In this document: positions 38,455 through 64,000 of the stretch, in pieces
Layout of the letters: each line of letters begins with the position of its first letter
How positions within the stretch are numbered: position 1 is the first letter of the stretch
Notes under the pieces: generated by a model
The model's database searches: none
Seen by the model: only the letters and a program-made list of their open reading frames with translations
What the model was told of the DNA's origin: nothing
NCBI GenBank assembly: GCA_964016885.1
Contig: OZ024740.1
Coordinates: 6,324,001-6,388,000 of the forward strand
Direction: 5' to 3'
Length of the DNA stretch: 64,000 nucleotides
From: Eledone cirrhosa
Lineage: Eukaryota
Made by a program: the position numbers and the translations under genes

Positions 38455-41409
38455 GTCGTCGTCCATCTTCCACGCTAGCATGGGTTAGACGGGAGTTGTC
38501 CCACTTGAGGCAAGGTCGGTCGGGTGACCGTGTCTCGCTCATATAGGACTATCTGGCAGGTTTTCTACGGCTGGATGCCCTTCCTAACACCAACCACATT
38601 TACAGTGTGGACTGGGAGGTTTTTACAGTGTTACCTACACGGCCACATTACAGCGTGGACTGTGTGTTTTTTTGACATGACACCTACACGATCTCGATCT
38701 CATTATCTCGTGGTGTTGGTGGGAGTGGGAGGATAGGGTAGGGGTAGTGGATCGGGGTGTATATTTGGTTAAGAGGCGCCTACTGACTGTAGGTTTCGCT
38801 TTGTACATAGGCAAGGCGGGTCTTCTGTATTACTGCGTAGCGCCAAAAACCTCGGTCCAGTGACATTGTCTTAGAGAGGTGCAAGTGTGTAAGGTCGGAA
38901 TTTATCAGATCGTCCCAGGTTTTTCTGGGTCTACCTACTCTGTAACTACCATCAATTTTGATCACCCTGCACTTTTTTATACAGCTGTCATCTTTCTTGC
39001 ACATCACATGACCATAGCAATGTTGTCTTCTCTCAAGGAAACAGCATCTGATCCCACTTATTCCTCATTTCTCACTTAGTTCATTTATGCTTTGCCGTTC
39101 ACGTATATTACTATTACACATCCAACGGAGCATGCAGGCTTCATTCCTTTCCAGTCTGCGCAGGTCCTCTGCACGTAATGCCCATGTCTCACTGCCATGT
39201 AGCATTGCTGTTCATATACAGGCATCATACAATCTGCCTTTCATTTTTAGAGAGAAACATTTTGTGGCCAACAGCGGTGTAAGCTCTCTGAACTTTTTCC
39301 ATCCCTTTCTGACTCTGGCTACTGTACTTTCAGAACACCCTCTACCACTGCTGATTTCGTCAGCCAGGTAACGGAAAGTGTCTACTATTTCTATAGAACC
39401 ATCTGGGCAATAGAAGGAGCTAGTATCCTGTGGGCACTTGCTACTTATTGCACCTGAGCATTGGCCACATATAAAGTTTACGTTCTTAGATAGTTTACCT
39501 GTGATCCCATTACATCTTTTATGTACCCATACTTTGCATTTGGGACATAAAATGGAATTTCTGCCTACTCCTTTCCTACACACTGAGCATAGCCATTTCC
39601 CTGAGGGTACCTGTGCCCTATTTTCCTTCTACAAACTAGAACTTTAGTCTTATACAAGTTAACCTTAAGGCCTTTTGATTCTAGGCCATGCTTCCATGTT
39701 TCAAATTTCATCTCTAGTTCAGTCATTGATTCAGCTATGAGCGTTACATCATCTGCGTATAGGAGTTCCCATGGGCAGCCGATCTTGAACTCCTCTGTTA
39801 TAGCCTGAAGGGCAATAATAAATAGGAGGGGGCTAAGGACAGAGCCTTGATGAACGCCAACTTTTACACTAAATTCTTCACAATATTCATTGTTAATTCT
39901 AACTTTACTGACTGTTTCATTATACATAGCTTGTGTCGCTCTCAGAAGCCATTCCTCTACACCTAGTTTTCTAAGAGCCCACCAGATAATAGAGCGGGGG
40001 ACTCTGTCAAAGGCTTTCTCCAGGTCTACAAAAGCTAAGTAGAGGGGTTTACTTTTAGCTAGGTACTTCTGTTGTTGTCGTACATGGAAAAGAGCGTCTG
40101 TGGTACTTTTACCTGACACAAACCCAAACTGCATTTCATCTAGATCAATTCGTTCTCTGATTAGTTGCGCTATAACTCTTTCTGTGACCTTCATGATCTG
40201 GTCAACTAACTTAATGCCTCTATAGTTTCCCCTATCTAGAGCATCCCCTTTACCCTTGTAGCAGTTAATGATGATGCTGCTATGCCAGCCTTTCGGTATG
40301 ACCCCATTCTGTATTACTTGGTTAACTATCCGGGTGACCATAGTATGTCCCACCATTCCAGATGCTTTCAACATTTCAGCAACTATCTCCGAAGTCCCAG
40401 CTGCCTTGCCTGTCTTCATATCTTTGATTGCCTTACTTATTATACTACTTTTAACTTGCACTGCTAGTCCTTCTATTGGATCGATTTGGGGCAGACTATC
40501 TTTTTCCCGTTTATTCTCCTCATTTAATAGTCTCTCGTAGTGACACTTCCAGGCTATCTTCTTATTAGTATAAGTGAGGGCAAGTACACCTTTATCATTA
40601 TCGACACACTTCTCCCCGACAATATCACGGTTTTCCTTGAGACATTGTCTAGCAATCCTGAACACCTCATGTTTTTGGTCCTCACGTTGTAGAACATGCT
40701 TGAACTTTCTATCCTCTGCTACCCTTTTTGCATGGTACACTTTCCTCCTAGCTTCTCTCCTGGTCACTTGATAGTGCTCTCTACTTCCCCCATCCTGCCA
40801 TACTTTCTAAGCCTGCTTTTTGGCCTTGATTGTCTCTTCCACCTCACTGTTCCACCACCAAGTTACTCTCCTCCTGCCAATAGGTCTGCTCCAGCCACAG
40901 ATTTTATCCGTTGCTTTCAGCAGGTTCACTTTCAAGGATTGCCACTGTTCCTCTCTATTGCACGTCTCTAATTGCTCTTCCTTATTGTGAAAGGCATCAA
41001 GTAATAAGCTTTTAAATTTGTCACTGGCTATGGGGTCCTTCAACTTCCATATTCTTCTCCTCAAGGTAGGCTCCTCTGTCGTCGAGTACGTCTATTCCTG
41101 ACTATGAGGTCACTAACTGCTAGGCTATGTCGGGAGGTGCATTCTTCACTGAGGAGGGATTTAGTGTTTACAACAGACACTTTTTCCCGTCTTCTAATAA
41201 GGATATAATCTATCTTCTAATAAGGATATAATCCCCTGATCTATAGGTGATCAACTGATTTTCACTTTTTTTGAAGTTTGTGTTATAGATAGTTAGGCTA
41301 TTTGCGTCACAGAATTCCAGGATTCTGAACCCTCCTCATTTCTATTTCCAACCCCATACCCTCCATGGATTCCATCATAGCCATCGCTATGTTGTCCAAC
41401 ATGACCGTT
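38452..41409 (-). mobile_element. 5'-truncated, frameshifted RTE-clade LINE (partial APE endonuclease, RT, Cys/His finger, 3'UTR, short-repeat tail)
   Basis: APE fragment NGHVGQHSDGYDGIHGGYG..RNEEG..ILEFCDANSLTIYNTNFKK (~41270-41409). ORF 39565-40767 has NYRGIKL, QFGF, YLAFVDLEKAFDRVP, GVHQGSVLSPLLF and LLYADD. ORF 39212-39583 has CRKGVGRNSILCPKCKVWVHKRC..CGQC. ORF 38780-39007 has GRPRKTW. The 3'UTR ends in (GAC)n against a (TA)n tract. Confidence 0.95.
39565..40767 (-). pseudogene. Reverse transcriptase segment of the RTE ORF, disrupted at both ends
   Basis: Canonical non-LTR RT motifs including YADD; the flanking coding segments lie in other frames. Confidence 0.9.
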
Positions 41410-45555: not shown

Positions 45556-46350
45556 ATCATCATCATCATCATTACCGTTTAACATCCATTTTTCCATCCT
45601 AGTATGAGTTAGATGAGTTGTCCCATTGTCAGACAAATCATATCATTTGACCTTGTCTTGCTCTTACAAGAACAGTTTCTCACTTGGTTTCTACGACTAG
45701 ATGCTCGTCCTAATGCCAACCAAATTTACAGAGTGGACTGGGTGCTCTTTATCATGGCATCAAAACAAACATTTTACAGTGTGGACTGGGTGCTTTTTAT
45801 TATGACGCCAAAACGACCACTTTACAGTGGGGGCTGGGTGCTTTCCTTGATAAGTCACCAACAGTCCTATTTGCCAGCCTCTCTTATATCCCTCAGTCTC
45901 CCATTCACATTACCCTGTTAACTGTACAATGGAGAATGGTAGTTTATTGTTTGACACCAACATCACATATACCAAATCAACATTAAATCCAGACATCAGA
46001 CACCTGAAGTATTGATGTTATTTAAATGCTGCCAGAACTAATGACATCAGCAAAGTGTCCTCCTCATTGTCATCATCATCATTTTAATGTCTGCTTTCCC
46101 TGCAAGGGTTGGACAGGTCTACATAGATCAATTCAGTACTGAAGTGGAGGCACAGATCTTCTAGACAAGCCAGGGATCTGCATCTCACTTATATATGATC
46201 TCATATTCTACCAAGTACACAGGGACGGTAGTCATGTCTTTGACACAACTAAGGGTCCTCCCAACTCTTTATTTGACAAATTTTCTACAGCTGAATGCCC
46301 TTCCTATCACCAGCCACTTTACAGCATGTACTCGGTGCATTTATCGTGTA
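45556..46350 (-). mobile_element. Two RTE-type 3'-end fragments (45556-45850, 46070-46350) directly upstream of the 58-bp satellite
   Basis: Each starts with a (CAT)n tail plus tttaacatccatttttcc or tttaatgtctgctttccc and contains tttctac..ctRRatgc..tcctaWYRccaRcca..tttacag. Confidence 0.75.
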
Positions 46351-46420
46351 GATCATCAAACACTGTGGGATGAAATTTCTTGATGTGACTGAAGGGTCCT
46401 CCCAGGATTGGGTTGGCAAT

Positions 46421-49400
46421 CTTTATATGGCTGGATACCCTTCCTATTACCAACCACACTACAACATGTACTGGCTGTGTATCCATGGCTAGATACCCTT
46501 CCTATTACCAACCACACTACAACATGTACTGGATGTGTTTCTATGATAATAGGAATGGTATCTAGCAATATAAACATTGCCGGTACATGTTGTAGTGTGG
46601 TTGGTAATAGGAAGGGTATCTAGCCATAGAAACACAACCACTACATGTTGTGGTGTGGTTGGTAATAGGAAGGGTATCTAGCCATAGAAACACAACCACT
46701 ACATGTTGTAGTGTGGTTGGTAATAAGAAGGATATCTAGCCATAGAAACACAGCCACTACATGTTGTAGTGTGGTTGGTAATAGGAAGGGTATCTAGCCA
46801 TAGAAACACAACCACTACATGTTGTAGTGTGGTTGGTAATAAGAAGGGTATCTAGCCATAGAAACACAGCCACTACATGTTGTGGTGTGGTTGGTAATAG
46901 GAAGGGTATCTAGCCATAGAAACACAACCACTACATGTTGTAGTGTGGTTGGTAATAAGAAGGATATCTAGCCATAGAAACACAGCCACTACATGTTGTA
47001 GTGTGGTTGGTAATAGGAAGGGTATCTAGCCATAGAAACACAACCACTACATGTTGTAGTGTGGTTGGTAATAAGAAGGGTATCTAGCCATAGAAACACA
47101 GCCACTACATGTTGTGGTGTGGTTGGTAATAGGAAGGGTATCTAGCCATAGAAACGCAGCCACTACATGTTGTAGTGTGGTTGGTAATAGGAAGGGTATC
47201 TAGCCATTGAAACACAGCCAGTACATGTTGTAGTGTGGTTGGTAATAGGAAGGGTATCTAACCATAGAAACACTGCCAGTAGATGTTGTAGTGTGGTTGG
47301 TAATAGGAAGGGTATCTAGCCATAGAAACACAGCCATTACATGTTGTAGTGTGGTTGGTAATAGGAAGGGTATCTAGCCATAGAAACACAGCCACTACAT
47401 GTTGTATTGTGGTTGGTAATAGGAAGGGTATCTAGCAATAGAAACACAACCTGTAGATATTGTAGTGTTGTTGGTAATAGGAAGGATATTTAGCCATTGA
47501 AACACAGCCAGTACATTACAACATGTACTGGCTGTGTTTCTATGGCTAGACACCCTTCCCATTACCAACCACACTACAACATGTACTGGCTGTGTTTCTA
47601 TGGCTAGATACCCTTCCTATTACCAACCACACTACAACATGTACTCGCAGTGTTTCTATGGCTAGATACCCTTCCTATTACCAACCACACTACAACATGT
47701 ACTGGCTGTGTTTCTATGGCTAGATACCCTTCCTATTACCAACCACACTACAACATGTACTGGCTGTGTTTCTATGGCTAGATAACCTTCCTATTACCAA
47801 CCACACTACAACATGTACTGGATGTATTTCTAATGGCTAGATACCCTTCCTATTACCAACCACACTGGAACATGTACTGGCTGTGTTTCTATGGCTAGAT
47901 ATCCTTCCTATTACCAACCACACTGGAACATGTACTGGCTGTGTTTCAATGGCTACATACCCTTCCTATTACCAACCACACTACAACATGTAGTGGCTGT
48001 GTTTCTATGGCTAGATACCCTTCCTATTATCAACCACACTACAACATGTACTGGCTGTGTTTCTATTGCCAGATACCCTTCATATTACCAACCACACTAC
48101 AACATGTAGTGGCTGTGTTTCTATGGCTAGATACCCTTCCTATTACCAACCACACTACAACATGTACTCGCAGTGTTTCTATGGCTAGATACCCTTCCTA
48201 TTACCAACCACACTGGAACATGTACTGGCTGTGTTTCAATGGCTACATACCCTTCCTATTACCAACCACACTACAACATGTAGTGGCTGTGTTTCTATGG
48301 CTAGATATCCTTCCTATTACCAACCACACAGCAACATGTACTGGCTGTGTTTCTATGGCTAGATACCCTTCCTATTACCAACCACACTACAACATTTACT
48401 GGATGTGTTTCTATGGCTAGATACCCTTCCTATTACCAACCACACTACAACATGTACTGGATGTGTTTCTATGGCTAGATACCCTTCCTATTACCAACCA
48501 CACTACAACATGTACTGGATGTATTTCTAATGGCTAGATACCCTTCCTATTACCAACCACACTGGAACATGTACTGGCTGTGTTTCTATGGCTAGATATC
48601 CTTCCTATTACCAACCACACTGCAACATGTACTGGCTGTGTTTCTATGGCTAGATGCCCTTCCTATTACCAACCACACTACAACATGTACTGGATGTGTT
48701 TCTATGGCTAGATACCCTTCCTATTACCAACCACACTACAACATGTACTGGATGTGTTTCTATGGCTAGATACCCTTCCTGTTACCAACCACACTACAAC
48801 ATGTAGTGGCTGTGTTTCTATGGCTAAATATCCTTCCTATTACCAACCACACTACAACATGTACTGGCTGTGTTTCTATTGTAGATACCCTTCCTATTAC
48901 CAACCACACTACAACATGTACTGGCAAAATTTCTATGGCTGGATACCCTTCCTATTACCAACCACACTACAAAATGTACTGGCAGTGTTTCTATGGCTAG
49001 ATACCCATCCTATTACCAACCACACTACAACATGTACTCGATGTGTTTCTATGGCTAGATACCCTTCCTATTACCAACCACACTACAACATGTACTGGCT
49101 GTGTTTCTATGGCTAGATACCCTTCCTATTACCAACCACACTACAACATGTAGTGGCTGCGTTTCTATGGCTAGATACCCTTCCTATTACCAACAGCACT
49201 ACAACATGTACTGGTTGTGTATCTATAGCTAAATATCCTTCCTATTACCAACCACACTACAACATGTACTGGCTGTGTTTCTATGGCTAGATACCCATCC
49301 TATTACCAACCACACTACACCATGTAGTGGCTGTGTTTCTATGGCAAGATACCCTTCCTATTACCGACCACACTACAACATGTACTGGCTGTGTTTCTAT

Positions 49401-52400
49401 GATAATAGGAATGGTATCTTGCAATAGAAACATTGCCGGTACATGTTGTAGTGTGGTTGGTAATAGGAAAGGTATCTAGCCATAGAAACACAGCCAGTAC
49501 ATGTTGTAGTGTGGTTTGTAATAGGAAGGGTATCTAGCCCTAGAAATACAGCCACTACATGTTGTAGTGTGGTCGGTAATAGGAAGGGTATCTAGCCATA
49601 GAAACACAGCCAGTACATGTTCTAGTGTGGTTGGTATAAGGAAGGGTATCTAGCCATAGAAACACTGCCAGTACATGTTCCAGTGTGGTTGGTAATAGGA
49701 AGGGTATCTAGCCATAGAAACACAGCCAGTACATGTTGTAGTGTGGTTGGTAATAGGAAGGGTATCTAGCAATAGAAACACAACCAGTAGATATTGTAGT
49801 GTTGTTGGTAATAGGAAGGATATTTAGCCATTGAAACACAGCCAGTACACTACAACATGTACTGGCTGTGTTTCTATGGCTAAATACCCTTCCTATTACA
49901 AACCACACTACAACATGTACGGGCTGTGTTTCTATGGCTAGATACCCTTCCTATTACCAACCACACTACAACATGTACTGGCAGTGTTTCTATGGCTAGA
50001 TACCCTTCCTATTACCAACCACCCTACAGCATGTAGTGGCTGTGTTTCTATGGCTAGATACCCTTCCTATTACCAACCACACTACAACATCTACTGGCTT
50101 TTTTTCTATGGCAACATACCCTTCCTATTACCAACAACACTACAACATGTACTGGCTGTGTTTCTATGGCTAGATACCCTTCCTATAACCAACCACACTA
50201 CAATATGTACTGGCTGTGTTTCTATGGCTAGATACCCTTCCTATTACCAACCACACTACACCATGTAGTGGCTGTGTTTCTATGGCATGATACCCTTCCT
50301 ATTACCGACCACACTACAAGATGTACTGGCACTGTTTCTATGGCAACATACCCTTCGTATTACCAACCACACTACAACATGTACTGGCAGTGTTTCCATG
50401 GCTAGATAGCTTTCCTATTACCAACAACACTACACCATGTACCGGCAATGTTTCTATGGCTAGATACCCTTCCTACTACCAACCACACTACAGCATGTAC
50501 TCGCAGTGTTTCAATGGCTAGATACCCTTCCTATTACCAACCACACTACAACATGTAGTGGCTGTGTTTATATGGCTAGATACCCTTCCTATTACCAACA
50601 ACACTACACCATGTACCGGCAATGTTTCTATGGCTAGATACCCTTCCTATTACCAACCACACTACAACATGTACTGGCAGTGTTTCTATGTCTAGATACC
50701 CTTCTTATTACCAAGCACACTACAACATGTACTGGCAGTGTTTCTATGGCTAGATACCCATCCTATTAGCAACTACACTACAACATGTACTGGCAAACTT
50801 TCTATGGCTGGATACCCTTCCTATTACCAACCATACTACAATATGTACTCGCTGTGTTTCTATGGTTAGATACCCTTCCTATTACCAACCACACTACAAC
50901 ATGTAGTGGCTGTGTATCTATGGCTAGATACCCTTCCTATTACCAACCACACTACAACATGTACGGGTTGTGTTTATATGGCTAGATACCCTTCCTATTA
51001 CCAACCACACTACAACATGTACTGGTTGTGTTTCTATGGCCACTACATGTTGTAGTGTGGTTGGTAATAGGAAGGGTATCTAGCCATTGAAACACAGCCA
51101 CTACATGTTGTAGTGTGGTTGGTAATAGGAAGGGTATCTAGCCATTGAAACACAGCCACTACATGTTGTAGTGTGGTTGGTAATTGGAAGCGTATCTAGC
51201 CATTGAAACACAGCCACTATATGTTGTAGTGAGGTTGGTAATAGGAAGGGCATCTAGCCATAGAAACACAGCCACTACCTGTTGTAGTGTGGTTGGTAAT
51301 AGGAAGGGTATCTAGCCATTGAAACACAGCCACTACATGTTGTAGTGTGGTTGGTAATAGGAAGGGTATCTAGCCATTGGAACACAGCCACTACATGTAG
51401 TGTGGTTGGTAATAGGAAGGGTATCTAGCCATAGAAACACAGCCACTACATGTTGTAGTGTGGTTGGTAATAGGAAGGGTATCTAGCCATAGTAATACAG
51501 CCAGTACATGTTGTAGTGTGGTTGGTAATAGGAAGGGTATCTAGCCATAGAAACACAGCCACTACATGTTGTAGTGTGGTTGGTAATAGGAAGGGTATCT
51601 AGCCATAGAAACACAGCCACTACATGTTGTAGTGTGGTTGGTAATAGGAAGTGTATCTAGCCATAGAAGCACAGCCACTACATGTTGTAGTGTGGTTGGT
51701 AATAGGAAGGGTATCTAGCCATAGAAACACAGCCAGTACATGTTGTAATGTGGTTGGTAATAGGAAGGGTATCTAGCCATAGAAACACAGCCACTACATG
51801 TTGTAGTGTGGCTGGTAATAGGAAGGGTATCTAGCCATAGAAACACAGCCACTACATGTTGTAGTGTGGTTGGTAATAGGAAGGGCATCTAGCCATAGAA
51901 ACACAGCCACTACATGTTGTAGTGTGGTTGGTAATAGGAAGGGTATCTAGCCATAGAAAAACAGCCACTACATGTTGTAGTGTCGTTGGTAATAGGAAGG
52001 GTATCTAGCCATAGAAACACAGCCACTACATGTTGTAGTGTGGTTGGTAATAGGAAGGGTATCTAGCCATTGAAACACAGCCATTACATGTTGTAGTGTG
52101 GTTGATAATAGGAAGGGTATCTAGCCATAGAAACACAGCTAGTACATGTTGTAGTGTGGTTGGTAATAGGAAGGGTATCTAGCCATAGAAACACAGCCAC
52201 TACATGTTGTAGTGTGGTTGATAATAGGAAGGGTATCTAGCCATAGTAATACAGCCACTACATGTTGTAGTGTGGTTGGTAATAGGAAAGGTATCTAGCC
52301 ATAGAAACACAGCCACTAAATGTTGTAGTGTGGTTGGTAATAGGAAGGGTATCTAGCCATTGGAACACAGCCACTACATGTAGTGTGGTTGGTAATAGGA

Positions 52401-55400
52401 AGGGTATCTAGCCATAGAAACACAGCCACTACATGTTGTAGTGTGGTTGGTAATAGGAAGGGTATCTAGCCATAGTAATACAGCCAGTACATGTTGTAGT
52501 GTGGTTGGTAATAGGAAGGGTATCTAGCCATTGAAACACAGCCACTACATGTTGTAGTGTGGTTGGTAATTGGAAGCGTATCTAGCCATTGAAACACAGC
52601 CACTACATGTTGTAGTGTGGTTGGTAATAGGAAGTGTATCTAGCCATAGAAGCACAGCCACTACATGTTGTAGTGTGGTTGGTAATAGGAAGGGTATCTA
52701 GCCATAGAAACACAGCCACTACATGTTGTAGTGTGGTTGGTAATAGGAAGGGTATCTAGCCATAGAAACACAGCCACTACATGTTGTAGTGTGGTTGGTA
52801 ATAGGAAGGGTATCTAGCCATAGAAGCACAGCCACTACATGTTGTAGTGTGGCTGGTAATAGAAAGGGTATCTAGCCATAGAAACACAGCCACTACATGT
52901 TGTAGTGTGGCTGGTAATAGGAAGGGTATCTAGCCTTGGAAACACAGCCACTACATGTTGTATTGTTGTTGGTAATAGGAAGGGTATCTAGCCATAGAAA
53001 CACAGCCACTACATGTTGTAGTGTCGTTGGTAAGAGGAAGGGTATCTAGCCATAGAAACACAGCCATTACATGTTGTAGTGTGGTTGGTAATAGGAAGGG
53101 TATCTAGCCATTGAAACACAGCCATTACATGTTGTAGTGTGGTTGATAATAGGAAGGGTATCTAGCCATAGAAACACAGCTAGTACATGTTGTAGTGTGG
53201 TTGGTAATAGGAAGGGTATCTAGCCATAGAAACACAGCCACTACATGTTGTAGTGTGGTTGATAATAGGAAGGGTATCTAGCCATAGTAATACAGCCACT
53301 ACATGTTGTAGTGTGGTTGGTAATAGGAAGGGTATCTAGCCATAGTAATACAGCCACTACATGTTGTAGTGTGGTTGGTAATAGGAAGGGTATCTAGCCA
53401 TAGAAACACAGCCACTACATGTTGTAGTGTGGTTGATAATAGGAAGGGTATCTAGCCATAGTAATACAGCCACTACATGTTGTAGTGTGGTTGGTAATAG
53501 GAAGGGTATCTAGCCATAGAAACACAGCTAGTACATCTTGTAGTGTGGTTGGTAATAGGAAGGGTATCTAGCAATAGAAACACTGCCAGTACATGTTGTA
53601 GTGTGGTTGGTAATAGGAAGGGTAACTAGCAATAGAAACACTGCCGGTACATGTTGTAGTGTGGTTGGTAATAGAAAGGGTATCTAGCCATTGAAACACT
53701 GCCAGTACATGTTGTAGTGTGGTTGGTAATATGAAGGGTATCTAGTCATAGAAACACATCCAGTACATGTTGTAGTGTGGTTGGTAATAGGAAGGGTATC
53801 TAGCCATTGAAACACAGCCACTACCTGTTGTAGTGTGGTTGGTAATAGGAAGGTTATCTATGGCTAGATACCCTTCCTATTACCAACCACACTACAACAT
53901 GTACTGGATGTGTTTCTATGACTAGATACCCTTCCTATTACCAACCGCACAACAACATGTAGTGGCTGTGTTTCTATGGCTAGATACCCTTCCTATTACC
54001 AACAACACTACACTATGTACCGGCAGTGTTTCTATGGCTAGATACCCTTCCTTCTACCAACCACACTACAGCATGTACTGGCAGTGTTTCTATGGCTAGA
54101 TACCCTTCCTATAACCAACCACACTACAACATGTACTGGCTGTGTTTCTATGGCTAGATACCCTTCCTATAACCAACCACACTACAACATGTACTGGCTG
54201 TGTTTCTATGGCTAGATACCCTTCCTATAACCAACCACACTACAACATGTACTGGCTGTGTTTCTATGGCTAGATACCCTTCCTATTACCAACCACACTA
54301 CAATATGTACTGGATGTGTTTCTATGGCTAGATACCCTTCCTATTACCAACCACACTACAACATGTACTGGCAAACTTTCTATGGCTGGATACCCTTCCT
54401 ATTACCAACCACACAACAACATGTACGGGTTGTGTTTCTATGGCTAGATACCCTTCCTATTACCAACTGCACTACAACATGTACTGGCTTTGTTTCTATG
54501 GCAACATACCCTTCGTATTAACAACCACACTTCAACATGTACTGGCAGTGTTTCTATGGCTAGATACCCTTCCTATTACCAACTGCACTACAACATGTAC
54601 TGGCTGTGTTTCTATGGCAACATACCCTTCCTATTACCAACCACACTCCAACATGTACTGGCTGTGTTTCTATGGCAACATACCCTTCGTATTAACAACC
54701 ACACTTCAACATGTACTGGCAGTGTTTCTATGGCTAGATACCCTTCCTATTACCAACTGCACTACAACATGTAGTGGCTGTGTTTCTATGATAATAGGAA
54801 TGGTATCTAGCAATAGAAACATTGCCGGTACATGTTGTAGTGTGGTTGGTAATAGGAAGGGTATCTAGCCTTGGAAACACAGCCACTACATGTTGTATTG
54901 TTGTTGGTAATAGGAAGGGTATCTAGCCTTGGAAACACAGCCACTACATGTTGTATTGTTGTTGGTAATAGGAAGGGTATCTAGCCATAGAAACACAACC
55001 ACTACATGTATTTGTGTGGTTGGTAATAGGAAGGGTATCTAGCCATAGAAACACAGCCACTACATGTTGTAGTGTGGCTGGTAATAGGAAGGGTATCTAG
55101 CCTTGGAAACACAGCCACTACATGTTGTATTGTTGTTGGTAATAGGAAGGTTATCTAGCCATAGAAACACAACCACTACATGTTGTAGTGTGGTTGGTAA
55201 TAGGAAGGGTATCTAGCCATAGAAACACAGCCACTACATGTTGTAGTGTGGTTGATAAAAGGAATGGCATCTAGCGATAGAAACACAGCCACTACATGTT
55301 GTGTGGTTGGTAATAGGAAGGGCATCTAGCCATAGAAACACAGCCACTACATGTTGTAGTGTGGTTGGTAATAGGAAGGGCATCTAGCCATAGAAACACA

Positions 55401-58400
55401 GCCACTACATGTTGTAGTGTGGTTGGTAATAGGAAGGGTATCTAGCCATAGAAACACAGCCACTACATGTTGTAGTGTGGTTGGCAATAGGAAGAGTATC
55501 TAGCCATAGAAACACAGCCACTACATGTTGTAGTGTGGTTGGTAATAGGAAGGGTATCTAGCCATAGAAACACAGCCACTACATGTTGTAGTGTGGTTGG
55601 TAATAGGAAGGGTATCTAGCCATAGAAACACAGCCACTACATGTTGTAGTGTGGCTGGTAATAGGAAGGGTATCTAGCCATTGAAACACAGCCACTACAT
55701 GTTGTAGTGTGGTTGGTAATAGGAAGGATATCTAGCCATAGAAACACAGCCACTACATGTTGTAGTGTGGTTGGTAATAGAAAGGGTATCTAGCCATTGG
55801 AACACAGCCACTACATCTTGTAGTGTGGTTGGTAATAGGAAGGGTATCTAGCTATAGAAACACAGCCACTACATGTTGTAGTGTGGTTGGTAATAGGAAG
55901 GGTATCTAGCCATAGAAACACAGCCACTACATGTTGTAGTGTGGCTGGTAATAGGAAGGGTATCTAACCATAGAAACACAGCCACTACATGTTGTAGTGT
56001 GGTTGGTAATAGGAAGGGTATCTAGCCATAGGAACACAGCCACTACATGTTGTAGTGTGGTTTGTAATAGGAAGGGTATCTAACCATGGTAATACAGCCA
56101 CTACTTGTTGTAGTGTGGTTGGTAATAGGAAGGGTATCTAGCAATAGAAACACTGCCAGTACATGTTGTAGTGTGGTTGGTAATAGGAAGGGTATCTAGC
56201 CATTGGAACACAGCCACTACATGTTGTAGTGTGGTTGGTAATAGGAAGGGTATCTAGCCATAGAAACACAGCCACTACATGTTGTAGTGTGGTTGGTAAT
56301 AGGAAGGGTATCTAGCCATAGTAATACAGCCACTACATGTTGTAGTGTGGTTGGTAATAGGAAGGGTATCTAGCAATAGAAACACTGCCAGTACATGTTG
56401 TAGTGTCGTTGGTAATAGGATGGGTATCTAGCAATAGAAACACTGCCAGTACATGTTGTAGTGTGGTTGGTAATAGGAAGGGTAACTAGCAATAGAAACA
56501 CTGCCAGTACATGTTGTAGTGTGGTTGGTAATAGGAAGGGTATCTAGCAATAGAAACACTGCCAGTACATGTTGTAGTGTGGTTGGTAATAGGAAGGGTA
56601 TCTAGCCATAGAAACACAGCCACTACATGTTGTAGTGTGGTTGGTAATAGGAAGGGTATCTAACCATAGAAACACTGCCAGTACATGTTGTAGTGTGGTT
56701 GGTAATAGGAAGGGTATCTAACCATAGAAACACTGCCAGTACATGTTGTAGTGTGGTTGGTAATAGGAAGGGTATCTAGCCTTGGAAACACAGCCACTAC
56801 ATGTTGTATTGTTGTTGGTAATAGGAAGGGTATCTAGCCATAGAAACACAACCACTACATGTATTAGTGTGGTTGGTAATAGGAAGGGTATCTAGCCATA
56901 GAAACACAGCCACTACATGTTGTAGTGTGGTTGGTAATAGGAAGGGCATCTAGCGATAGAAACACAGCCACTACATGTTGTAGTGTGGTTGGTAATAGGA
57001 AGGGCATCTAGCCATAGAAACACAGCCACTACATGTTGTAGTGTGGGTGGTAATAGGAAGGGTATCTAGCCATTGAAACACAGCCACTACATGTTGTAGT
57101 GTGGCTGGTAATAGGAAGGGTATCTAACCATTGAAACACTGCCAGTAGATGTTGTAGTGTGGTTGGTAATAGGAAGGGTATCTAACCATTGAAACACTGC
57201 CAGTAGATGTTGTAGTGTGGTTGGTAATAGGAAGGGTATCTAGCCATAGAAACACAGCCACTACATGTTGTAGACTGGTTGGTAATAGGAAGGGTATCTA
57301 GCCATAGAAACACAGCCACTACATGTTGTAGTCTGGTTTGTAATAGGAAGGGTATCTAGCCATAGAAACACAGCCACTACATGTTGTAGTGTGGCTGGTA
57401 ATAGGAAGGGTATCTAGCCATAGAAACACAGCCACTACCTGTTGTAGTGTGGTTGGTAATAGGAAGGGTATCTAGCCATAGAAACACAGCCACTACATGT
57501 TGTAGTGTGGTTGGTAATTGTAGGAGTATCTAGCCATTGAAACACAGCCACTACATGTTGTAGTGTGGTTGGTAATAGGAAGGGTATCTAGCCATAGAAA
57601 CACAGCCACTACATGTTGTAGTGTGGTTGGTAATAAGAAGGGTATCTAGCCATTGAAACACAGCCACTACATGTTGTAGTGTGGCTGGTAATAGGAAGGG
57701 TATCTAACCATAGAAACACAGCCACTACATGTTGTATTGTTGTTGGTAATAGGAAGGGTATCTAGCCATAGAAACACAGCCACTACATGTTGTAGTGTGG
57801 CTGGTAATAGGAAGGGTATCTAGCCTTGGAAACACAGCCACTACATGTTGTATTGTTGTTGGTAATAGGAAGGTTATCTAGCCATAGAAACACAACCACT
57901 ACATGTTGTAGTGTGGTTGGTAATAGGAAGGGTATCTAGCCATAGAAACACAGCCACTACATGTTGTAGTGTGGTTGATAAAAGGAATGGCATCTAGCGA
58001 TAGAAACACAGCCACTACATGTTGTGTGGTTGGTAATAGGAAGGGCATCTAGCCATAGAAACACAGCCACTACATGTTGTAGTGTGGTTGGTAATAGGAA
58101 GGGCATCGAGCCATAGAAACACAGCCACTACATGTTGTAGTGTGGTTGGTAATAGGAAGGGTATCTAGCCATAGAAACACAGCCACTACATGTTGTAGTG
58201 CGGTTGGTAATAGGAAGGGTATCTAGCCATTGAAACACAGCCACTACATGTTGTAGTGTGGCTGGTAATAGGAAGGGTATCTAACCATAGAAACACTGCC
58301 AGTAGATGTTGTAGTGTGGTTGGCAATAGGAAGGGTATCTAGCCATAGAAAGACAGCCACTACATGTTGTAGTGTGGTTGGTAATAGGAAGGGTATCTAG

Positions 58401-61400
58401 CCATAGAAACACAGCCACTACATGTTGTAGTGTGGTTGGTAATAGGAAGGGTATCTAGCCATAGAAACACAGCCACTACATGTTGTAGAGTGGCTGGTAA
58501 TAGGAAGGGTATCTAGCCATTGAAACACAGCCACTACATGTTGTAGTGTGGTTGGTAATAGGAAGGATATCTAGCCATAGAAACACAGCCACTACATGTT
58601 GTAGTGTGGTTGGTAATAGGAAGGGTATCTAGCCATTGGAACACAGCCACTACATGTTGTAGTGTGGTTGGTAATAGGAAGGGTATCTAGCCATAGAAAC
58701 ACAGCCACTACATGTTGTAGTGTGGTTGGTAATAGGAAGGGTATCTAGCCATAGAAACACAGCCACTACATGTTGTAGTGTGGCTGGTAATAGGAAGGGT
58801 ATCTAACCATAGAAACACAGCCACTACATGTTGTAGTGTGGTTTGTAATAGGAAGGGTATCTAGCCATTGGAACACAGCCACTACATGTTGTAGTGTGGT
58901 TTGTAATAGGAAGGGTATCTAGCCATAGAAACACAGCCATTACATGTTGTAGTGTGGTTGGTAATATGAAGGTTATCTATGGCTAGATACCCTTCCTATT
59001 ACCAACCACACTACAACATGTAGTGGCTGTGTTTCTTTGGCTAGATACCCTTCCTATTACCAACCACACTACAGCATGTAGTGGCTGTTTATCTATGGCT
59101 AGATACCCTTCCTATTACCAACCACACTACAACATGTACTGGATGTGTTTCTATGGCTAGATACCCTTCCTATTACCAACCACACTACAACATGTACTGG
59201 CAGTGTTTCTATGGCTAGATACCCTTCCTATTACCAACCACACTACAACATGTACTGGCTGTGTTTCTATGGCTAGATACCCTTCCTATTATCAACACAC
59301 TACAACATGTACTGGCTGTGTTTCTATGGCAACATACCCTTTGTATTAACAACCACACTTCAACATGTACTGGCAGTGTTTTTATGGCTAGATACCCTTC
59401 CTATTACCAACCACACTCCAACATGTACTGGCTGTGTTTCTATGATAATAGGAATGGTATCTAGCAATAGAAACATTGCCGGTACATGTTGTAGTGTGGT
59501 TGGTAATAGGAAGGGTATCTAGCCATAGAAACACAGCCACTACATGTTGTAGTGTGGTTGGTAATAGGAAGGGTATCTAGCCTTGGAAACACAGCCACTA
59601 CATGTTGTATTGTTGTTGGTAATAGGAAGGGCATCTAGCGATAGAAACACAACCACTACATGTATTAGTGTGGTTGGTAATAGGAAGGGTATCTAGCCAT
59701 AGAAACACAGCCACTACATGTTGTAGTGTGGTTGGTAATAGGAAGGGTATCTAGCCATAGAAACACAGCCACTACATGTTGTAGTGTGGTTGGTAATAGG
59801 AAGGGTATCTAGCCATAGAAACACAGCCACTACATGTTGTAGTGTGGTTGGTAATAGGAAGGGTATCTAGCCATAGAAACACAGCCACTACATGTTGTAA
59901 TCTGGTTGGTAATAGGAAGGGTATCTAGCCATAGAAACACAGCCACTACATGTTGTAGTGTGGCTGGTAATAGGAAGGGTATCTAGCCATAGAAACACAG
60001 CCACTACCTGATGTAGTGTGGTTGGTAATAGGAAGGGTATCTAGCCATTGAAACACAGCCACTACATGTTGTAGTGTGGTTGGTAATAGGAAGGATATCT
60101 AGCCATAGAAACACAGCCACTACATGTTGTAGTGTGGTTGGTAATAGGAAGGGTATCTAGCCATTGGAACACAGCCACTACATGTTGTAGTGTGGTTGGT
60201 AATAGGAAGGGTATCTAGCCATAGAAACACAGCCACTACATGTTGTAGTGTGGTTGGTAATAGGAAGGGTATCTAGCCATAGAAACACAGCCACTACATG
60301 TTGTAGTGTGGCTGGTAATAGGAAGGGTATCTAACCATAGAAACACAGCCACTACATGTTGTAGTGTGGTTTGTAATAGGAAGGGTATCTAGCCATTGGA
60401 ACACAGCCACTACATGTTGTAGTGTGGTTTGTAATAGGAAGGGTATCTAGCCATAGAAACACAGCCATTACATGTTGTAGTGTGGTTGGTAATATGAAGG
60501 TTATCTATGGCTAGATACCCTTCCTATTACCAACCACACTACAACATGTAGTGGCTGTGTTTCTTTGGCTAGATACCCTTCCTATTACCAACCACACTAC
60601 AGCATGTAGTGGCTGTTTATCTATGGCTAGATACCCTTCCTATTACCAACCACACTACAACATGTACTGGATGTGTTTCTATGGCTAGATACCCTTCCTA
60701 TTACCAACCACACTACAACATGTACTGGCAGTGTTTCTATGGCTAGATACCCTTCCTATTACCAACCACACTACAACATGTACTGGCTGTGTTTCTATGG
60801 CTAGATACCCTTCCTATTATCAACACACTACAACATGTACTGGCTGTGTTTCTATGGCAACATACCCTTTGTATTAACAACCACACTTCAACATGTACTG
60901 GCAGTGTTTTTATGGCTAGATACCCTTCCTATTACCAACCACACTCCAACATGTACTGGCTGTGTTTCTATGATAATAGGAATGGTATCTAGCAATAGAA
61001 ACATTGCCGGTACATGTTGTAGTGTGGTTGGTAATAGGAAGGGTATCTAGCCATAGAAACACAGCCACTACATGTTGTAGTGTGGTTGGTAATAGGAAGG
61101 GTATCTAGCCTTGGAAACACAGCCACTACATGTTGTATTGTTGTTGGTAATAGGAAGGGCATCTAGCGATAGAAACACAACCACTACATGTATTAGTGTG
61201 GTTGGTAATAGGAAGGGTATCTAGCCATAGAAACACAGCCACTACATGTTGTAGTGTGGTTGGTAATAGGAAGGGTATCTAGCCATAGAAACACAGCCAC
61301 TACATGTTGTAGTGTGGTTGGTAATAGGAGGGTATCTAGCCATAGAAACACAGCCACTACATGTTGTAGTGTGGTTGGTAATAGGAAGGGTATCTAGCCA

Positions 61401-63800
61401 TAGAAACACAGCCACTACATGTTGTAATCTGGTTGGTAATAGGAAGGGTATCTAGCCATAGAAACACAGCCACTACATGTTGTAGTGTGGCTGGTAATAG
61501 GAAGGGTATCTAGCCATAGAAACACAGCCACTACCTGATGTAGTGTGGTTGGTAATAGGAAGGGTATCTAGCCATAGAAACACAGCCACTACATGTTGTA
61601 GTGTGGTTGGTAATAGGAAGGATATCTAGCCATAGAAACACAGCCACTACAGTGGCTGTGTTTCTTTGGCTAGATACCCTTCCTATTACCAACCACACTA
61701 CAGCATGTAGTGGCTGTTTATCTATGGCTAGATACCCTTCCTATTACCAACCACATTACAACATGTACTGGATGTGTTTCTATGACTAGATACCCTTCCT
61801 ATTACCAACCACACTACAACATGTACTGGCAGTGTTTCTATGGCTAGATACCCTTCCTATTACCAACCACACTACAACATGTACTGGCTGTGTTTCTATG
61901 GCTAGATACCCTTCCTATTACCAACCACACTACAACATGTACTGGCTGTGTTTCTATGGCTAGATATCCTTCTTATTACCAACCACACTACAACATGTAC
62001 TGGCTGTGTTTCTATGGCTAGATACCCTTCCTATTACCAACCACACTACAACATGTACTGGCTGTGTTTCTATGGCTAGATACCCTTCCTATTACCAACC
62101 ACACTACAACATGTACTGGCTGTGTTTCTATGGCTAGATACCCTTCCTATTACCAACCACACTACAACATCAACTGGCTGTGTTTCTATGGATAGATATC
62201 CTTCTTATTACCAACCACACTACAACATGTACTGGCTGTGTTTCTATGGCTAGATACCCTTCCTATTACCAACCACACTACAACATGTACTGGCTGTGTT
62301 TCTATGGCTAGATACCCTTCCTATTACCAACCACACTACAACATGTACTGGCTTTGTTTCTATGGCTAGATACCCTTCCTATTACCAAGCACACTACAAC
62401 ATGTACTCGCTGTGTTTCTATAGCTAGATACCCTTCCTATTACCAACCACACTACAACATGTACTGGATGTGTTTCTATGGCTAGATACCCTTCCTATTA
62501 CCAACCACACTACAACATGTAGTGGCTGTGTTTCTTTGGCTAGATACCCTTCCTATTACCAACCACACTACAGCATGTAGTGGCTGTTTATCTATGGCTA
62601 GATACCCTTCCTATTACCAACCACACTACAACATGTACTGGCTTTGTTTCTATGGCTAGATACCCTTCCTATTACCAACCACACTACAGCATATAGTGGC
62701 TGTTTATCTATGGCTAGATACCCTTCCTATTACCAACCACACTACAACATGTACTGGATGTGTTTCTATGGCTAGATACCCTTCCTATTACCAACCACAC
62801 TACAACATGTAGTGGCTGTGTTTCTTTGGCTTGATACCCTTCCTATTACCAACCACACTACAGCATGTAGAGGCTGTTTATCTATGGCAAAATACCCTTC
62901 CTATTACCAACCACACTACAACATGTACTGGCTGTGTTTCTATGGCTAGATGCCCTTCCTATTACCAACCACACTACAACATGTACTGGCTGTGTTTCTA
63001 TGGCTAGATACCCTTCCTATTACCAACCACACTACAACATGTACTGGCTTTGTTTCTATGGCTAGATACCCTTCCTATTACCAACCACACTACAACATGT
63101 ACTTGCTGTGTTTCTATAGCTACATACCCTTCCTATTACCAACCACACTACAACATGTATTGGCTGTGTTTCTATGCCGAGATACCCTTCCTATTACCAA
63201 CCACACTACAACATGTAGTGGCTGTGTTTCTATGGCTAGATATCCTTCTTATTACCAACCACAACAACATGTACTGGCTGTGTTTCTATGGCTAGATATC
63301 CTTCTTATTACCAACCACACTACAACATGTAGTGGCTGTGTTTCTATGGCTAGATATCCTTCTTATTACCAACCACACTACAACATGTACTGGCTGTGTT
63401 TCTATGGCTAGATATCCTTCTTATTACCAACCACACTACAACATGTAGTGGCTGTGTTTCTATGGCTAGATATCCTTCTTATTACCAACCACACTACAAC
63501 ATGTAGTGGCTGTGTTTCTATGGCTAGATATTCTTCCTATTACCAACCACACTACAACATGTAGTGGCTGTGTTTCTATGGCTAGATATCCTTCTTATTA
63601 CCAACCACACTACAACATGTACTGGCTGTGTTTCTATGGCTAGATATCCTTCCTATTACCAACCACACTACAACATGTAGTGGCTGTGTTTCTATGGCTA
63701 GATACCCTTCCTATTACCAACCACACTACAACATGTACTGGCAGTGTTTCTATGGCTAGATACCCTTCCTATTACCAACCACTCTACAACATGTACTCGC
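46421..63800. repeat. 58-bp tandem satellite (TTTCTATGGCTAGATACCCTTCCTATTACCAACCACACTACAACATGTA(CT/GT)GGCTGTG), ~300 monomers in 13 alternating-orientation blocks
   Basis: 58-bp period read directly. Strand switches at ~46545, 47515, 49401, 49849, 51040, 53859, 54790, 58979, 59444, 60507, 60972 and 61649. Confidence 0.99.
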
Positions 63801-64000
63801 TCTGTTTCCTTTGTAGATCTCCAACATATACATATTTGTTGTTACTGAAATGCTCATTAAATTCAATTAGTGTCTCTGACTCCTTAACATCAACACGTGA
63901 TCCAGATAAACTATTAGGGACTAATATGCCCCTAAATTATATTCTCTATCTTGTTTTCTCCCAGGCATCTGAACGAGGAGGACAGTTTTATCTCTGCGAA

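Follow-up and report, generated by a model that had tools for sequence, protein, structure and literature searches.

In a 64,000-bp window of the Eledone cirrhosa genome (3.0 Gb; GCA_964016885.1, contig OZ024740.1, positions 6324001–6388000, hereafter the window), a 58-bp minisatellite array lying 6.4 Mb from the start of the 443-Mb contig switches orientation twelve times. The reading we favour, with a probability of about 0.6, is that a few old junctions, likely produced by replication template switching, gave rise to the twelve turns, which are mostly their direct copies or deletion products. The structure of the array is most likely neutral.

Positions below are those of the window. We designate as F the monomer strand starting TAATAGG and as R its complement (the 'forward' of the preliminary description); variants are written as F position plus letter against the commonest monomer, and segments are numbered 0–12. 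Tandem Repeats Finder gave a period of 58 bp from 46427 to ~63810, and of the 288 full monomers 172 are F and 116 are R. A k-mer orientation map resolved 13 segments separated by 12 switches of five junction types (A five times, B twice, C once, D three times and E once), all in-register positions falling within 2 bases of those in the preliminary description, which had reported the same number of switches and types. The array reaches ~63815, past the end given there (61655). The inner segments are 0.45–4.2 kb long, both ends of the array are in R, which is the orientation of the host element, and all five junction types consist of monomer sequence, with no foreign DNA at the switches. The array can be read as six direct units, A1-F-B1-R, A2-F-B2-R, C-F-D1-R, A3-F-D2-R, A4-F-D3-R and A5-F-E-R (Table 1).

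The junction copies carry a clear record of descent. Copies of one type have private variants in common up to 100 bases from the junction, and the cores of A differ at 0–2 of 52 positions among copies, with later, separate substitutions in individual junction copies. Blocks F1 and F3 have the A monomer in common at one end and two private monomers in common at B. Polarity is constant within each type (A 5/5, B 2/2, D 3/3, no flipped copy), an outcome with a chance of 1/128 under random polarity. On a larger scale, a 1528-bp unit is present in two direct copies that are 99.7% identical (1307 bp exact, 4 substitutions in 1361 bp and one 1-bp indel), with a third copy, shortened by a deletion, after them. 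Within the array, 21 exact matches of 150 bp or more are direct and none is inverted, the longest inverted exact match being 108 bp. The preliminary description had proposed a few primary events followed by tandem amplification of higher-order units, citing the private flanking variants, the common polarity and the 1528-bp duplication; all three observations hold, and the private variants, the excess of direct matches and the lack of flips bear out the proposal itself.

Junction E, by contrast, is not the independent fold-back type that had been described. Aligned with the 1528-bp unit, its left flank stops at 60123 and its right flank picks up at 60550, which amounts to a 426-bp deletion across D, and its right arm bears the private variants of D, being the right flank of D2/D3 and not the mirror of the left arm of E. 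E is a deletion product of D. Junction C is probably a deletion product of A. A fossil of the left-edge monomer recurs in three R blocks: in R2 it precedes A2 by 8 monomers, in R4 it precedes C by 4 and in R6 it precedes A3 by 7. Its presence upstream of C, as of A2 and A3, agrees with an origin of C by deletion across an A.

Variants are also sorted by orientation. The 37G variant is carried by 88 of 116 R monomers versus 33 of 172 F monomers, and variant pairs in common across an intervening block number 27 for R4–R6, 23 for F1–F3 and 25 for F7–F9, against 0–5 for blocks of opposite orientation. Of the 29 haplotypes present in more than one copy, just one is found in both orientations (5000 shuffles: mean 16.6, minimum 8), and F monomers beside junctions are R-like, with 37G in 10 of 24 compared with 25 of 155 elsewhere (Fisher p = 0.01); the monomers being related by descent, these shuffle and Fisher values overstate independence. 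The A monomer has 31T, 32T and 36G in common with R4 monomers, and 21 of 22 copies of the host element carry 37G. From these two observations and the 37G beside junctions, F derives from R.

Table 1. Features of the array and its edges, in window coordinates. Junctions A and C run from R to F; B, D and E run from F to R.
Feature	Coordinates	Strand	Details
Left flank: 3′ tail of dispersed non-long-terminal-repeat (non-LTR) retroelement	46075..46426 (start approximate)	-	Short (CAT)n end; one internal ~138-bp unit copy before the array
58-bp minisatellite array	46427..63815	both orientations	288 full monomers, 13 segments
Junction A1, with diverged A monomer	46533..46590	+	At 46545; 10T 21A 31T 32T 36G 37G, 58A before
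Junction B1	47475..47564	+	At 47515; loop 8 nt
Copy of left-edge monomer	48900..48957	+	Upstream letters of element and ancestral 17C; others at 50769–50826 and 54347–54404
Junction A2	49389..49446	+	At 49401
Junction B2	49809..49898	+	At 49849; 16T in mirror position on both arms; microhomology ACA, 3 bp
Junction C	51001..51064	+	At 51040; one copy, loop 12 nt, arms of different lineages
Junction D1	53727..53940	+	At 53860, at TCTA/TAGA hairpin of monomer; relic 20T 33T 37G at 53727 and 53883
Junction A3	54778..54835	+	At 54790
Two direct copies of 1528-bp unit	58440..61495	+	D2 (58979) and A4 (59444); D3 (60507) and A5 (60972)
Junction E	61611..61688	+	At 61651; third unit copy minus 426 bp (= 60124–60549, D included); 1-bp microhomology, loop 2–4 nt
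Right edge	63775..63835	-	Last monomer element-like; host element resumes for ~15 bases

The origin of the monomer gives the array its direction. A search with the left flank returned 5796 first-look candidates genome-wide, of which 39 were scored (77–85% identity), and alignment with 11 copies defined a (CAT)n-ended element with an internal ~138-bp unit in two copies. Next to 4 of the 13 family copies examined, the minus strand encodes the C-terminus of a reverse transcriptase, which identifies the host as the 3′ tail of a non-LTR retroelement, presumably RTE-like; downstream of the array, a reverse-transcriptase open reading frame (ORF) matches RVT_1 and a PHD finger. The array begins inside the second ~138-bp unit copy, and the flanks are co-linear, belonging to one element copy in a single orientation on both sides. 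Because the array starts and ends in R, that orientation is ancestral and the switches are even in number. Against 22 element copies the monomer shows 7 substitutions over 53 comparable positions, and in the sequence an imperfect direct repeat, recurring after 58 bp, marks its two limits. Judged from the sequence comparison, the monomer corresponds to 58 bp of the internal unit of the element, and the array began as R. Tandem arrays can grow from transposable-element fragments, and here likewise the monomer is part of a dispersed element and the array is embedded in it, although sister arrays from the same motif have a single orientation, unlike this one.

The surroundings hold further traces of such elements. 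Fragments of non-LTR reverse-transcriptase ORFs lie at 39565–40806 (minus strand) and, downstream, at L001:2466–3908 (minus strand), both with RVT_1 and the second with the PHD-finger match; short tandem repeats of 48–49 bp at 45725–45844 and 38594–38690 resemble, by eye, another part of such an element tail.

The intact flanks bear on one way in which the array might have been built, by breakage-fusion-bridge cycles near a chromosome end. Its place close to the start of a very long contig and its fold-back-like junctions invite the idea, but such cycles are expected to lose distal sequence, and at the right edge the host element resumes; with both flanks intact and co-linear in one element copy, and with both junction polarities alternating and repeating directly, we regard this origin as hardly credible.

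How the first junctions arose is a harder question, and the shape of the junctions does little to answer it. All five types fold stably as interrupted palindromes, with unpaired loops of 4 nt for E, 4 nt for D, 8 nt for B, 12 nt for C and 17 nt for A in the folding centroid (21 nt for A by register). The preliminary description had reserved near-perfect palindromes for B, D and E; these do fold, but so do A and C. No possible switch in a 58-bp array (3364 per polarity) gives a loop longer than 29 nt, and 32% of them give loops of 8 nt or less. Since any switch in a periodic array is an interrupted palindrome, short loops alone are weak evidence, and we rejected palindromic shape as proof of fold-back. 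We also sought mirror symmetry over whole arms at all 12 junctions and found none: the arms differ by 6.8–10.5% at 12/12 junctions and have 0–2 variants in common of 11–91 per junction.

A pair of relics speaks for copying rather than cutting. At D, which sits at a 4-bp TCTA/TAGA inverted repeat of the monomer, a 20T 33T 37G monomer stands on both sides, one register apart, 20T 33T being among the top of 73 cross-orientation pairs. B sits at a 3-bp inverted repeat, and at B2 the 16T variant occupies the mirror position on both arms. These relics favour template-switch copying over cut-and-flip, and it is from them, at B and D, that the support for a fold-back origin of the junctions comes. A plain inversion, a single primary event in which two breaks and end-joining gave the first inverted block, D was a deletion product of B and the same amplification followed without fold-back, is unlikely: the relics at D1 (20T 33T) and B2 (16T) are expected from copying and not from cutting and flipping, even though that scenario fits the short microhomologies, the lack of overall mirroring between arms and loop sizes that agree with chance, and can point to E as proof that deletions create new short-loop junctions.

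Several observations weigh against template switching followed by amplification. Loops of at most 8 nt in at least three of five types are no departure from chance (P = 0.15), so that the palindromes offered earlier as fold-back evidence do not serve as such. At A the microhomology is just 2 bp long and no mirror relic adjoins it; repeats as short as those at A, B and D are common by chance, and the junction microhomologies of 1–4 bp fit end-joining equally well. The mirror relics span one monomer each, that at D1 being offset by one, and hairpin gene conversion could also leave them. A test for hairpin-perfecting substitutions on 22 copies of the host subfamily, replacing a first comparison that had mixed two element subfamilies (15 differences), gave a mixed result (stem length P ~0.01, folding energy P 0.45) and is not used as support. 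To these we add the kinship of the monomers mentioned above, and the sequencing data, in which no contig crosses A (two runs) or E (three runs) among the matches listed, with 22–31 placed per run, and no contig placed over A carries its 36G letter.

These data bear directly on whether the switches are artefacts of sequencing or assembly, through fold-back chimeric reads, amplification chimeras or mis-joins. They comprise contigs from three runs of one sample, possibly the source of the assembly, and three reduced-representation (RAD) runs, and the junctions looked at were A and E. The three contig runs contain 65–71% of the words of the flank. Depth per monomer copy is 6.5–8.3 in these runs, compared with 8.3–10 at the single-copy right edge, and this nearness to single-copy depth supports the size of the array. 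Two runs show a depth of 0 just past E, and one shows it over the A monomer; contigs drop rare paths, and such coverage holes prove nothing. One 50-base contig placed on the A monomer differs from it at 3 sites; as it agrees with ordinary 21A 32T 37G monomers, it was not counted as support. The three RAD runs placed 0 reads on the array. The missing contigs over A and E, the near-identity of the 1528-bp copies and the single-copy status of C and E speak for an artefact, but a chimera would give identical mirror arms, which none of the junctions has. Variants sorted by orientation and arms that are not mirrors argue against read chimeras, as do the point changes between junction copies and the array size indicated by depth, and we consider an artefact quite improbable.

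Switches of this kind are unusual for this genome. A search with the array gave 608 candidates, of which 39 were scored, and orientation mapping found 0 internal switches in 21 sister arrays of 55–61 bp (~99.5 kb; 8 of them are longer than 3 kb, two have one consensus, three run beyond the fetched stretch), nor any in at least 58.8 kb of the neighbouring 32-bp array, in keeping with the earlier statement that single-orientation arrays are the usual case. Counted by primary events, about one array in 22 is affected. A 59-bp array in L036 appeared unrelated and was left out of this control, and a switch flagged at L040 falls beyond the limits of the array there, whose own direction is constant.

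The same control speaks to the idea that the switches had independent origins at hot spots dictated by the hairpins of the monomer. D and E are located at the two hairpins of the monomer, and its 7-bp hairpin ties for the longest perfect stem in the arrays under comparison, yet three sister arrays with 6-bp hairpins (L028, L041 and L042) have no switch. The private variants common to copies of a type largely refute separate origins, which we rate as highly improbable. As for the hairpins themselves, 37C completes the 7-bp hairpin and predominates in F blocks, ancestral 37G predominates in R blocks, and 27T, in 9 R and 0 F monomers, lengthens the other hairpin.

The sister arrays have some interest of their own. 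One retroelement-tail motif seeded at least 21 arrays of 55–61 bp, up to 42.6 kb in length, a recurrent satellite nursery; their loci (L015–L042) include C9:10784348-10826930, C19 from 25936001, and sites on C5, C8, C12, C28 and others. The longer ones are mostly 92–97% homogeneous inside and ~70–85% alike to this array. L041 (C5:9.74 Mb) and L042 (C5:1.30 Mb) have an identical 61-bp consensus and near-identical offsets, and L028 (C5:10.16 Mb) holds a similar array in the opposite orientation; the three are likely segmental duplicates. The 32-bp array (1–28839 in the window; L043–L045) continues for 30 kb or more beyond the upstream end of the window, in one orientation.

The history we propose for the array would involve two or three old template switches. 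A monomer taken from the internal unit of the element first formed an array in R. An out-and-back template switch may then have copied a few R monomers in inverted orientation, creating junctions A and B, and slippage or unequal exchange between monomers of the same orientation would have multiplied the result into the six units, each of junction, F block, junction and R block, that are now seen, lengthening or shortening blocks and homogenising each orientation on its own. D would stem from a subsequent fold-back at the TCTA/TAGA hairpin, which, by ending through homology in an existing F block, would need no partner junction. Deletions across junctions finally produced new types, E and presumably C, and the tiny loop of E fits polymerase slippage past an out-of-register hairpin. 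A bolder version, to which we give tentative and less than even credence, is that one seeding inversion turned the array into a self-renewing source of junctions: fold-backs and hairpin-bypass deletions would make partnerless types, direct exchange would multiply them, the two orientations would persist as separate lineages, and conserved inversion sites and macro-dyads like those of beetle centromeres could arise without selection, with this locus as a miniature in which that can be read.

Similar patterns are known in kind from beetle and human satellite DNA. TfSat01 of Tribolium freemani has six conserved inversion types with loops of 9–27 bp and no foreign sequence (PMC12581902), and in T. 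madens the macro-dyad symmetries INV_1a, INV_1b and INV_2 comprise thousands of conserved sites with a degenerate subunit; its authors state that macro-dyads are documented in Tribolium only (PMC13081366). The present array resembles them in its opposite kilobase subarrays within a single array, in its few junction types reused often, in truncated monomers and in the lack of foreign sequence, with loops of 2–21 nt; the A monomer is its counterpart of the degenerate but conserved monomer that marks their inversion sites. Unlike it, the Tribolium arrays are described there as multi-megabase, putatively (peri)centromeric and present on many chromosomes at thousands of sites, and are interpreted as possibly functional. 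Genome-wide, the junction A motif has 5 matches, all in this array and on one strand, with none at other loci; a 38-base monomer motif has 101, and the 100 among the matches listed all lie within this array. The abundance and spread over many chromosomes of the Tribolium satellites are thus lacking here, and this single 17-kb locus, though like them in architecture, stands outside the centromeric class. It derives from a retroelement tail, and its genealogy reveals junctions that were reused by descent and replaced through deletion.

Parallels in mechanism come from partial accounts of small inverted triplications, with a median spacer of 30 bp, junctions of 6 bp and loss by slippage over a hairpin (PMC13334657), and of yeast inverted junctions formed by origin-dependent inverted-repeat amplification (ODIRA) at repeats of 2–14 bp, where secondary deletions occur (PMC10766183). 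There, as here, paired junctions of opposite polarity lie at short interrupted inverted repeats, flanks are unchanged and arms suffer secondary deletions; those events mirror unique DNA, whereas here the mirror has been nearly erased by monomer turnover and the unit then amplified. Human HSat3B5 and beta-satellite arrays, with >200 inversion breakpoints (bioRxiv 10.1101/2021.07.12.452052), likewise have many breakpoints in one satellite family, but according to the part of that preprint available they are megabase-sized and pericentromeric, and their breakpoints are not sorted there into inherited types; inversions are also reported in Cuscuta arrays (PMC8091179). We found no array of this kind in a retroelement-tail minisatellite in the literature covered, which did not extend to satellite origins from the tails of long interspersed nuclear elements; the Tribolium supplements may hold junction genealogies.

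Selection for alternating blocks as a structure, be it a chromatin cruciform or loop or double-stranded RNA in a host intron, has been proposed for Tribolium macro-dyads. In Eledone cirrhosa the A monomer is conserved in five copies, all junctions fold stably and a candidate exon lies nearby, but descent explains the conservation, the locus is single, and junctions such as C and E are undergoing deletion and replacement; we think selection very unlikely. The possible exon, read from splice-like motifs, is a stretch of 43 nt 150 bases downstream of the array (63925–64000 and L001:1–13), with a pyrimidine tract and AG at 63963–63964, GT after the 43 bases, and at least 2 frames open. The ORF lists gave reverse-transcriptase fragments and simple repeats and no recognisable host gene (two ORFs were scanned for domains). 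Were the array to lie in a transcribed intron, the pre-mRNA would fold into kilobases of double-stranded RNA beside this small exon.

The locus points to no new gene, element or function. Its value lies in being small and fully readable: one can follow, monomer by monomer, how junctions were reused by descent or replaced and how each orientation was homogenised. Even across a few hundred bases, inverted monomers have exchanged sequence far less often than direct ones. Reused satellite inversion junctions have been taken as a sign of function in Tribolium, and here descent and deletion explain that pattern. The locus supplies a neutral null model for larger arrays, together with three cheap tests to apply to them: the polarity of junction copies, the sorting of variants by orientation and the presence of mirror relics.

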